Assembly: GCA_964016885.1 (NCBI GenBank)
Contig: OZ024745.1
Span: 26,040,001-26,104,000 of the forward strand
DNA from: Eledone cirrhosa
Taxonomy: Eukaryota
Direction: 5' to 3'
DNA: 64,000 nt
The position numbers were made by a program, and so were the translations under genes. Positions 59,641 through 61,135 of this stretch are shown piece after piece. Within the stretch, counting starts at the first letter, position 1, and each line of letters starts with the position of its first letter. The notes under the pieces are model-generated. The model searched no databases. It saw only the letters and a program-made list of their open reading frames with translations, and was not told where the DNA came from.

Positions 59641-60706
59641 ACGTGTGGTGTGTGTGTGTGTGTGTGTGTGAATATATATATATATGTATATATATATGTA
59701 TATGTATATATATATATATGTATATATATATATATATATATATATGTATATATATATGTATATGTATATATATATATATGTATATATATATATATATATA
59801 TATATGTATATATATATATATATGTATATATATATGTATATATATATATGTATATATATATGTATATATATATGTATATATATATATGTATATATATATA
59901 TATATATATATATGTATATATATATGTATATATATATGTATATATATATGTATATATATATGTATATATATATGTATATATATATGTATATATATATATA
60001 TGTATATATATATATATATATGTATATATATATGTATATATATATATATATATATATGTATATATATATGTATATATATATATATGTATATATATATATA
60101 TATATATGTATATATATATATATGTATATATGTATATATATATGTATATATATATATATATATATGTATATATATATATATATATATGTATATATATATA
60201 TGTATATGTATGTATATATATATATATATGTATATATATATATATATATATGTATATGTATGTATATATATATATATATATATGTATATATATATATATA
60301 TGTATGTATATAATATATATATGTATGTATATATATATATATATATATATATATATATATATATATATATATATATATATATATATATATATATATATAT
60401 ATATATATATATATATGTATATATATATATATATATGTATATATATATATATATATATATATATATATATGTATATATATATATATATATATATATATAT
60501 ATATGTATATATATATATATATATATATATATATATATATATATATATATATATATATATATATATATATATGTAGATAAATCTACCAAGAATTTACGGT
60601 AGTGTCCAATCCGTATGAAGAACTCAATGTATTCCGGTTATCATGGAAAGAAGAGATGTAATGAAAAATCACTTTCGGTGAAAGATAAACGGTATACAGA
60701 GTCAAG

Positions 60707-61135
60707 ATAAAATATTAAACAAAAAATGAATAAAACAATGAAACAGTTCCTTATATTAAACAAAAAAAGTTCATTATTTAACGATCGTTTCTAGGATATA
60801 TATGTGTTAGAATTGGTATGCATATTCAACAGATCTATGTACAAAATTATACAGAATTATACAAACTATCAAGATTAAATATACATACCAACACATATAT
60901 ACGCCGTCTTCAGAAATAATTATTATTTCTGAAGACGGCGTATATATGTGTTGGTATGTATATTTAATCTTGATAGTTTGTATAATTCTGTATAATTTTG
61001 TACATAGATCTGTTGAATATGCATACCAATTCTAACACATATATATCCTAGAAACGATCGTTAAATAATGAACTTTTTTTGTTTAATATAAGGAACTGTT
61101 TCATTGTTTTATTCATTTTTTGTTTAATATTTTAT
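60707..61135. repeat. Perfect palindrome, 214-bp arms around a single T (60921)
   Basis: Read base by base, no mismatch noticed. The left arm continues as a ~135-nt unique tail to 60573; (TA)n on both sides. Confidence 0.92.
60922..61069 (+). ncRNA. Type I hammerhead ribozyme with ~115-nt stem II (mirror copy 60773-60920 on minus strand)
   Basis: ATTATTT-CTGAAGA-[60936-61050: TATATATGTGTT/AACACATATATA and TTGGTATGTATATTTAA/TTGAATATGCATACCAA helices]-GAAA-CGATCG-T-T-AAATAAT. 7-bp helix I, palindromic stem III, GUU site. Confidence 0.8.

Follow-up and report, generated by a model that had tools for sequence, protein, structure and literature searches.

The stretch of DNA analysed here (hereinafter the window) comprises 64,000 nucleotides of Eledone cirrhosa (GenBank assembly GCA_964016885.1, contig OZ024745.1, positions 26,040,001 to 26,104,000 of the forward strand) and consists of microsatellite-rich animal DNA with LINE (long interspersed nuclear element) fragments and two exons of a SoxE gene. 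Toward its right end a (TA)n-rich microsatellite harbors a perfect palindrome of 429 bp, in which two arms of 214 nt are 100% complementary around a single central T (Table 1; window coordinates throughout). Each arm opens at the axis with a motif reminiscent of the hammerhead ribozyme, that of the left arm being the mirror image of that of the right, and positions in the unit are counted from the axis, with +1 at 60922 on the plus strand or at 60920 on the minus strand. The left copy reaches +348 and the right copy +214, and the outer ends of both meet (TA)n, within which a target duplication is unreadable. The perfect symmetry, the axis at the 5' edge of helix I, the one-sided tail and the (TA)n setting had all been described in an initial annotation of this DNA, and the coordinates agree. 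Other matches to the unit in the window are of low complexity only. The palindrome is probably one insertion of a high-copy repeat family, likely consisting of solo head-to-head Penelope-like terminal repeats formed during reverse transcription, with each arm starting with a hammerhead motif that is predicted to be held inactive by an insert in its stem II.

Table 1. Coordinates of the palindrome, its hammerhead-like motif and its flanks
Feature	Coordinates	Strand	Remarks
(TA)n-rich microsatellite, left flank	59672..60572	.	presumed target
Tail, 134-nt 3' extension of the left copy only	60573..60706	-	unit +215 to +348; from sequence
Left arm, putative pseudo-long terminal repeat (pLTR)	60707..60920	-	unit +1 to +214
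Symmetry axis, single T	60921	.	at the fixed 5' end of the unit
Right arm, putative pLTR	60922..61135	+	unit +1 to +214; ends in (TA)n
Helix I, 5' strand (+1 to +7)	60922..60928	+	7 Watson-Crick pairs with 61063-61069; mirror 60920-60914 (-)
Core CUGAAGA (+8 to +14), plus extra unpaired C	60929..60936	+	core at 60929-60935; extra C between positions 9 and 10.1
Long stem II rod	60937..61050	+	opens GG/CC, closes with UA before G12
Candidate 98-nt spliceosomal intron (+33 to +130)	60954..61051	+	mirror 60888-60791 (-); sequence and shuffle test
GAAA, stem III region, predicted cut	61051..61062	+	GAAA 61051-61054 (+130 to +133); predicted cut after 61062
Helix I, 3' strand (+142 to +148)	61063..61069	+
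(TA)n, right flank	61136..61158	.

Repeat family and inverted junctions

The unit was compared, over 60567-60960 and at 80% likeness, with short-read contigs of four runs (X1, X4, X5 and X7) out of 22 listed; runs with a share under 0.2 were excluded from use, and contig depth was not taken as copy number. Words of the family occur in 19 of the 22 listed runs, under 16 organism labels, and three of these 19 hold half or more. The four runs yielded 1,935 (X1), 369 (X4), nine (X5) and five (X7) contigs, with a summed depth of 1e5 to 1e6 in X1, where single junction contigs reach a depth of only 6-25. The unit thus belongs to a very abundant repeat family. The stem II insert is covered in all four runs and is present in runs under three organism labels, which indicates that the long stem II is a trait of the family and no accident of this locus. 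In X7 one contig (219 nt, depth 2) spans 60707-60937 with six substitutions and 12 gap letters, and four further pieces of this run (25, 26, 28 and 29), of 37-38 nt with 6-7 differences, were left out of account as AT-rich matches that are probably unrelated. Near 60573 the end of the family adjoins TA repeats in other copies too (loose end at 60591, 21 contigs), and an AT-rich or (TA)n target is evident both from the flanks of the present copy and from loose ends at 60591 and 60707.

Both arms carry two letters that are rare in X1, namely G at 60854, with no more than 132 of 322,061 depth, and A at 60724, with 103 of 448,343, and the tail holds a third at 60638 (77 of 204,369). Letters found at under 0.05% of X1 depth and yet shared by both arms point to one template, to mutual copying or to later homogenisation. 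As a consequence, the identity of the arms, from which a very recent insertion had been proposed, is confirmed as such and dates the insertion only loosely.

Six of the seven joints listed from the family contigs share one architecture, in which an inverted copy is cut at 60609, 60613, 60719, 60744, 60769 or 60787 and joined to 60918-60923, i.e. to the edge of helix I, while the seventh (60660 to 60770, in X4) lies away from this edge. A perfect even palindrome on the same axis, 3 nt shorter than the present one, is represented by contigs with a 3-letter gap at 60919 (five in X1, with depth 4,727 of 178,005, and one in X7, with depth 2). Longer copies extend upstream of +1 into different sequence, in which AATAAA precedes a TCA-T context (as seen at the loose ends 60917 and 60920 of X1, X4 and X5). 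The fixed junction point is most simply read as marking a discrete 5' end of the RNA at +1/+2, which probably reflects transcription initiation at an initiator-type site; poly(A)-site cleavage is less favored, and a ribozyme cut as the source of this end is excluded, given that the predicted cut sits at +141. Inverted junctions piled at one base thus map the likely RNA 5' end, and they also bear on how such palindromes form. Two cDNAs primed from both ends of the target fit the joints better than self-priming, because a shortened copy with the tail could not have served as template for a partner beginning at +1, except with the arms in exchanged roles.

Hammerhead-like motif and stem II insert

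The two halves of the catalytic core are separated by 115 nt (60936-61050) up to G12. The sequence elements expected of a type I core, CUGANGA, GAAA, U16.1 and H17, occur in order, and helix I closes the motif with seven Watson-Crick pairs, though as an isolated duplex it is weak (-1.1 kcal/mol). Stem III is formed by the self-complementary AACGAUCGUU at 61053-61062 (+132 to +141), with the GUU ending at 61062 (+141); the self-duplex of this 10-nt palindrome amounts to -11.8 kcal/mol, so that a helix III shared by a dimer is possible. An extra nucleotide inserted after position 9 and before 10.1 is a mark of metazoan Penelope-type hammerheads (PMC4209133). The junction of stem II reads C-GG...CC-UA-GAAA, as previously described, and an alternative register places a C-A mismatch at the closing position and is 1.2 kcal/mol worse. 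What had been taken for a complete type I hammerhead accordingly retains its core, helix I and palindromic stem III, whereas its stem II is unclosed at G12 and its best predicted fold buries the core; it is better classed as a hammerhead-like variant than as a proven type I member, and as a monomer it is probably off. An ordinary minimal Penelope-type hammerhead is also found in the window, at 24004-23966 on the minus strand, about 90 nt upstream of a TA/TG microsatellite; it has the extra nucleotide (an A), a 4-bp helix I and a 4-bp stem II with a G10.1-C11.1 pair, whose C, unlike that of the palindrome motif, directly precedes GAAA.

A strict descriptor (7-bp helix I, spacer of 5-200 nt, palindromic stem III) recovered two matches in the window, namely the two arms, which amount to one independent event against a chance expectation of 0.003 per 64 kb (300 block shuffles), and a loose version with a 5-bp helix I recovered three against 0.18 expected in block shuffles. 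Rfam searches over 58000-64000 gave no hammerhead among 137 matches at E up to 10, only sub-threshold hairpins of microRNA type, and pattern scans found no loci in viral contigs and none in metagenome contigs with two patterns. Within the family, position 17, which is U here, is A in 40% of X1 depth, both being allowed by the NUH rule. Ten substitutions are listed in +1 to +148, six of them at paired positions, where five keep the pair and one (3-5% of depth) breaks it.

The insert itself folds to -40.0 kcal/mol in the sense orientation (z -6.54, with none of 200 shuffles equally stable) and to only -23.1 in the antisense orientation, which bears out the structured hairpin of about 115 nt noted earlier and points to RNA structure rather than DNA structure. 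Fold prediction for the monomer shows that the hammerhead fold is reachable at -37.4 kcal/mol, and that the minimum is a rod at -41.5, i.e. about 4 kcal/mol lower. In this rod +5 to +10 pair with +128 to +133, such that the CUG of the core is engaged by the UAG before GAAA; in the 148-mer the pair C8-G130 has a probability of 0.75 and helix I one of 0.16. Cofolding of two monomers gains 11 kcal/mol via the stem III palindrome, and the rod survives there (-94.0 for the rod beside the dimer duplex against -91.4 for open cores without helix I); the double-hammerhead dimer is not nested and hence lies outside the scored folds. Thus, the 115-nt insert is predicted to keep the hammerhead-like motif in an inactive fold, and it is this long, possibly splice-able and probably inhibitory insert that forms the new part of the element.

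A possible further indication on the structure of the RNA comes from X4, a run from another sample whose kind is unrecorded and whose size, in millions of letters, is 88 compared with about 1,400 for X1. Its sense strand shows A-to-G differences at +122 in 19% (0.01% in X1) and at +108 in 34% (0 in X1), and all eight differences from the unit in two loose-end consensuses (of three and two contigs) are A-to-G; taken together, the A-to-G positions in X4 are +4, +12, +21, +23, +25, +108, +120, +122 and +124. There is rough complementarity between +1 to +24 and +114 to +137. The five 5' changes, four of them opposite C, strengthen a longer rod by 9.1 kcal/mol (matched by none of 1,000 random sets), and the whole set strengthens it by 14.8 kcal/mol (none of 2,000). 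A-to-I editing of double-stranded RNA is performed by ADAR, which has a liking for A-C mismatches. The differences are somewhat more likely than not to reflect A-to-I editing of double-stranded sense RNA that keeps the insert, although a genomic subfamily with a longer, more stable rod could equally give the rod-strengthening pattern, and no weight is placed on editing here. A CUGAGGA in an X4 loose end had been considered as genomic variation at N7 and was dropped, as it may be RNA editing.

The predicted off state has to be weighed against other interpretations of the motif. The unspliced long-stem motif might itself be the working ribozyme, by way of the stem III dimer or a protein of the element, with the UA tolerated and the rod a mere peripheral arm. 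Natural hammerheads tolerate weak or mismatched bases in stem II and some core insertions (PMC3088659), the Clec2 hammerhead functions across an insertion of hundreds of bases (PMC6765202), the hammerhead fold lies just 4 kcal/mol above the rod, and position 17 varies within NUH only. However, the rod persists beside the dimer duplex in the cofold, cleavage of a natural hammerhead was strongly reduced by 2 nt inserted elsewhere in its core (PMC3088659), and the family contigs, which show ends poorly, have no pile-up of ends at the cut site, so that this interpretation, while tenable, appears rather unlikely.

A second interpretation holds that the insert is mostly a spliceosomal intron that splits the core as G/AAA, such that spliced RNA would form a normal-sized hammerhead with a 6-bp stem II, with only the spliced form being cut and only the unspliced form being copied. 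The candidate intron has a donor G/GTATGT at +33, a branch-like TTCTAAC at 61030-61036 (+109 to +115) and an acceptor TAG ending exactly at G12, all with suitable spacing, and joining +32 to +131 would restore GAAA and leave a 17-nt spacer plus the extra C. Eight donors were paired with this acceptor, and two of them, one being the strongest, preserve GAAA; in 20,000 dinucleotide shuffles the joint occurrence of the three signals has a frequency of 0.0006 under strict criteria and 0.02 under loose ones, both chosen post hoc. The common change at +104 spares the donor T, and the placement resembles the 5' intron of D. virilis Penelope, where a 75-bp intron located 46 bp after the start site is spliced (PMC2377424) and abuts the hammerhead of that element (PMC4209133). 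Against this, four of the six pairs of the spliced stem II would be G-U, including the one at 10.1-11.1, with the hammerhead fold at +3.7 kcal/mol, whereas the unspliced form retains GG/CC. The donor and branch are buried in the -40 kcal/mol rod, the pyrimidine tract is poor in comparison with two host SoxE acceptors, and some copies are without the branch-bearing bulge (loose ends at 60807 in 13 X1 contigs and one X4 contig). None of the seven listed joints, which come from four runs of which none is recorded as RNA, skips 60791-60888, and the insert is covered in X4, a run that may be RNA; the missing skip joint is weak counter-evidence, because the cleaved 5' piece of a spliced RNA would be only 43 nt. 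The intron is accordingly doubtful, and more doubtful still is a full splicing switch, in which the intron both splits GAAA and locks the core, with spliced RNA shedding its own 5' end and unspliced RNA staying whole as the sole genomic template. If true, such a switch would explain the retention of introns in Penelope-like elements, and clades currently taken to lack ribozymes would be expected to harbor overlooked hammerheads split by introns.

Finally, the likeness to a hammerhead might be decayed or due to chance and without a role, with a rod from an inverted duplication as the only real structure. This would accord with the complementarity of +1 to +24 and +114 to +137, strengthened by the X4 A-to-G set, and with the lack of an Rfam hammerhead. 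It is nevertheless improbable in view of the descriptor statistics (0.003 per 64 kb), and a simple hairpin leaves unexplained the separate, perfect partner of helix I, the palindrome of stem III, the additional nucleotide preceding G10.1 and the U/A alternation at position 17.

Origin of the palindrome

In the proposed scenario, an RNA would start at the helix I edge (+1), probably at a transcription start in an initiator-like context. The reverse transcriptase (RT) of the element, acting in trans, would then initiate cDNA synthesis internally, at +348 and at +214, from the pair of nicked (TA)n target ends, with the tail representing the sequence between these starts. Both cDNAs would run toward +1 and be joined 5' end to 5' end; in most of the listed junctions one copy would have stopped early, while in the present case both would have reached +1. 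The template would have been uncleaved with its insert retained, which is proposed to follow from the pairing of the monomer core with the UAG at the 3' edge of the insert. Cleavage, if any, would require stem III dimerisation, help from a protein or removal of the insert.

This scenario accommodates the inverted, often 5'-truncated copy adjoining a 5' end, as seen in the window and in six of the seven joints, the tail confined to the left copy, and the presence in each putative pLTR of a hammerhead motif, at the level of sequence and with the UA junction as a caveat. It thereby supports the earlier suggestion of a Penelope-type hammerhead in an inverted terminal repeat, though without a link to an open reading frame (ORF) for RT or GIY-YIG. 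Head-to-head pLTR palindromes are a published by-product of Penelope-like insertion (PMC3846280, PMC8557442), and a Penelope-like protein nicks AT-rich DNA and extends both of its strands in vitro (PMC11167929). By itself the palindrome is hence an ordinary Penelope-like insertion product with an already published layout. The significance previously attached to it, as a source of ribozyme from either strand or of double-stranded RNA, stands as regards the exact structure, and nothing shows a function; a transcript spanning the whole palindrome is predicted to fold back at -328 kcal/mol and would form neither ribozyme.

Several points weigh against the origin proposed here and against the predicted off state. 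With respect to the motif, no 10.1-11.1 pair lies directly beside G12, the UA standing between C11.1 and G12, and with stem II left open at this point the motif could be a dead one instead of a switched one. In a 348-nt context the probability of the off fold drops to 0.24, and that of helix I to 0 as well. The pair-keeping changes in the family are all one-sided; the lone both-sided hint, a possible U-A to C-G change in helix I comprising C at +3 (X1 loose end at 60917) and G at +146 (26% of X1 depth), is not linked on one contig. None of 19 listed differences hits a core position, which by simple arithmetic is expected about half the time by chance, and identity across organism labels, at about 97%, is too close for showing selection. 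With respect to the mechanism, the count of joints is biased toward junctions near +1, because the right arm was covered for 39 nt only and the contigs are short, and the tail of 134 nt exceeds the published 30-40. No Penelope RT or GIY-YIG was detected in the two open frames of the unit, and GIY-YIG was found in none of 49 window ORFs scanned. A 43-aa frame in the tail had no protein relatives and nothing above threshold in Pfam. A frame of 49 codons at 60644-60790 on the minus strand, which runs directly after the candidate acceptor into the tail and would be without a start codon after splicing at +33, had no relative found either, its sole match, a repetitive bacterial-type protein without an aligned stretch, being rejected as noise.

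Two further explanations of the locus fare worse than those of the motif. A non-LTR retrozyme, in which tandem monomers of 150-400 nt are processed to circles, would suit the 348-nt size, the type I motif, the palindromic stem III and the low GC, and retrozymes have been proposed to derive from Penelope pLTRs (bioRxiv 10.64898/2026.07.22.740005); yet the unit forms a single inverted pair rather than a head-to-tail tandem, none of the seven joints connects a unit end to a start, and what longer copies carry upstream of +1 differs from the tail, all of which make a retrozyme very improbable. That the palindrome is an assembly or library artefact, i.e. a fold-back chimeric read, can hardly be credited: the arm identity, including two family-rare letters, would fit it and the exact one-T junction of the locus is not separately visible in family contigs, but the symmetry stops at 61135/60707 before differing outer flanks, with element tail on one side and (TA)n on the other, and short-read contigs from X1 as well as X7 contain junctions on the same axis. 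The palindrome can thus be regarded as genuine and shared across the family, with established Penelope-like biology accounting for most of it.

Another inverted head-to-head unit lies in (TA)n at about 59170-59640; its arms of about 212 nt differ by three substitutions and two small gaps, and only its left copy bears a tail, of about 39 nt. This unit belongs to a different family and has no CUGANGA inside, and its shared layout indicates that such inverted structures are routine in this genome. Likewise, 377-491 and 22345-22432 belong to one family, and both copies terminate in a short head-to-head palindrome beside (TA)n; they are likely insertions of the same style. Short inverted repeats with 69-91% identity are located at 26393-26522, 40441-40531 and 57078-57288, two of them beside (TA)n. 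The remainder of the window includes an abundant dispersed repeat of about 190 nt in both orientations, in part tandem (7400-8070, 13433-13906, 23254-23672, 26260-26462, 37404-37601, 58494-58685 and 62231-62556), and LINE-type RT and zinc-finger fragments at 53477-54310 (+), 4681-5334 (-), 14367-15425 (-) and 2414-2782 (-). The SoxE (Sox9-like) gene is represented by two coding exons in 44047-46259 (-) with poly-A and poly-Q runs, which best match mollusc Sox9 at 54-65% among the top ten rows, with no cephalopod protein among the matches listed; its first HMG exon was not found by a minus-strand motif search.

Comparison with known Penelope-like systems

The role of the hammerhead in Penelope-like elements and the retention of introns in their copies have both been called unresolved (PMC8557442, PMC11167929). 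In this respect the present family offers a compact test piece of 148 nt in which three switches can be separated: the palindrome for dimers, the UA at the junction and the long insert. The hammerhead descriptors in print permit only 7-17 nt between the core halves (PMC8557442), and long-spacer families would consequently be invisible to them and to Rfam. Short motifs of the unit were sought in the supplement of Craig 2021, in which six of the seven had no match and one had an unrelated match, in a text whose line breaks could hide matches. A literature search recovered no Penelope-type hammerhead with such a long spacer or with a split by a spliceosomal intron. Work on stem II variants or relaxed descriptors could already cover the long stem II, and Lunse 2016 and Arkhipova 2017 are said to deal with these subjects.

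The closest parallels are with the hammerheads of metazoan Penelope pLTRs (PMC4209133; Cervera and de la Pena 2014), which share the type I arrangement, the extra nucleotide at 9/10.1, a G at 10.1 and a short palindromic stem III suited to dimers, and which likewise occur as motif pairs on opposite strands, 100-700 bp apart. They differ in having stems of 6-8 bp in place of a 115-nt spacer; in the present unit, moreover, the UA parts C11.1 from G12, and no linked ORF was found. With respect to overall layout, the palindrome resembles the inverted pLTR pairs of Penelope elements (Arkhipova 2013, PMC3846280; Craig 2021, PMC8557442), which feature repeats of about 200 bp (193-218 bp in PMC3846280, with the head-to-head form commonest), a palindrome at the junction, a tail at one end and (TA)n. 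Here, by contrast, each arm extends in full to the same base, no ORF lies between them and the tail is several times longer than in the published pairs.

The Poseidon element PAc of Anolis (Frangieh 2024, PMC11167929) provides a counterpart for the proposed mechanism, in that its RT starts at two internal sites, the resulting 3' ends bounding a tail, its target is AT-rich and its hammerhead, which requires protein, is near the 5' part of a template that is mainly unprocessed RNA, much as an uncleaved template is proposed here. Unlike in the present unit, where stem II is very long and no intact ORF start was found, the ORF of PAc starts in stem II. In the case of D. virilis Penelope (Schostak 2008, PMC2377424) a short intron similarly lies tens of bases past the presumed start and overlaps the hammerhead region; its splicing has been shown, and its end coincides with the 5' edge of helix I, whereas the candidate described here would split the catalytic GAAA. 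Core halves set apart beyond the spacing of the descriptors are again reminiscent of the 'HHR_half_core' of Naiad (Craig 2021, PMC8557442) and of the split Clec2 hammerhead (PMC6765202). In Naiad the half-cores are 35-50 nt apart, with no fold described, and in Clec2 the insertion measures several hundred nt and resides in a host mRNA, as against 115 nt in the present family.

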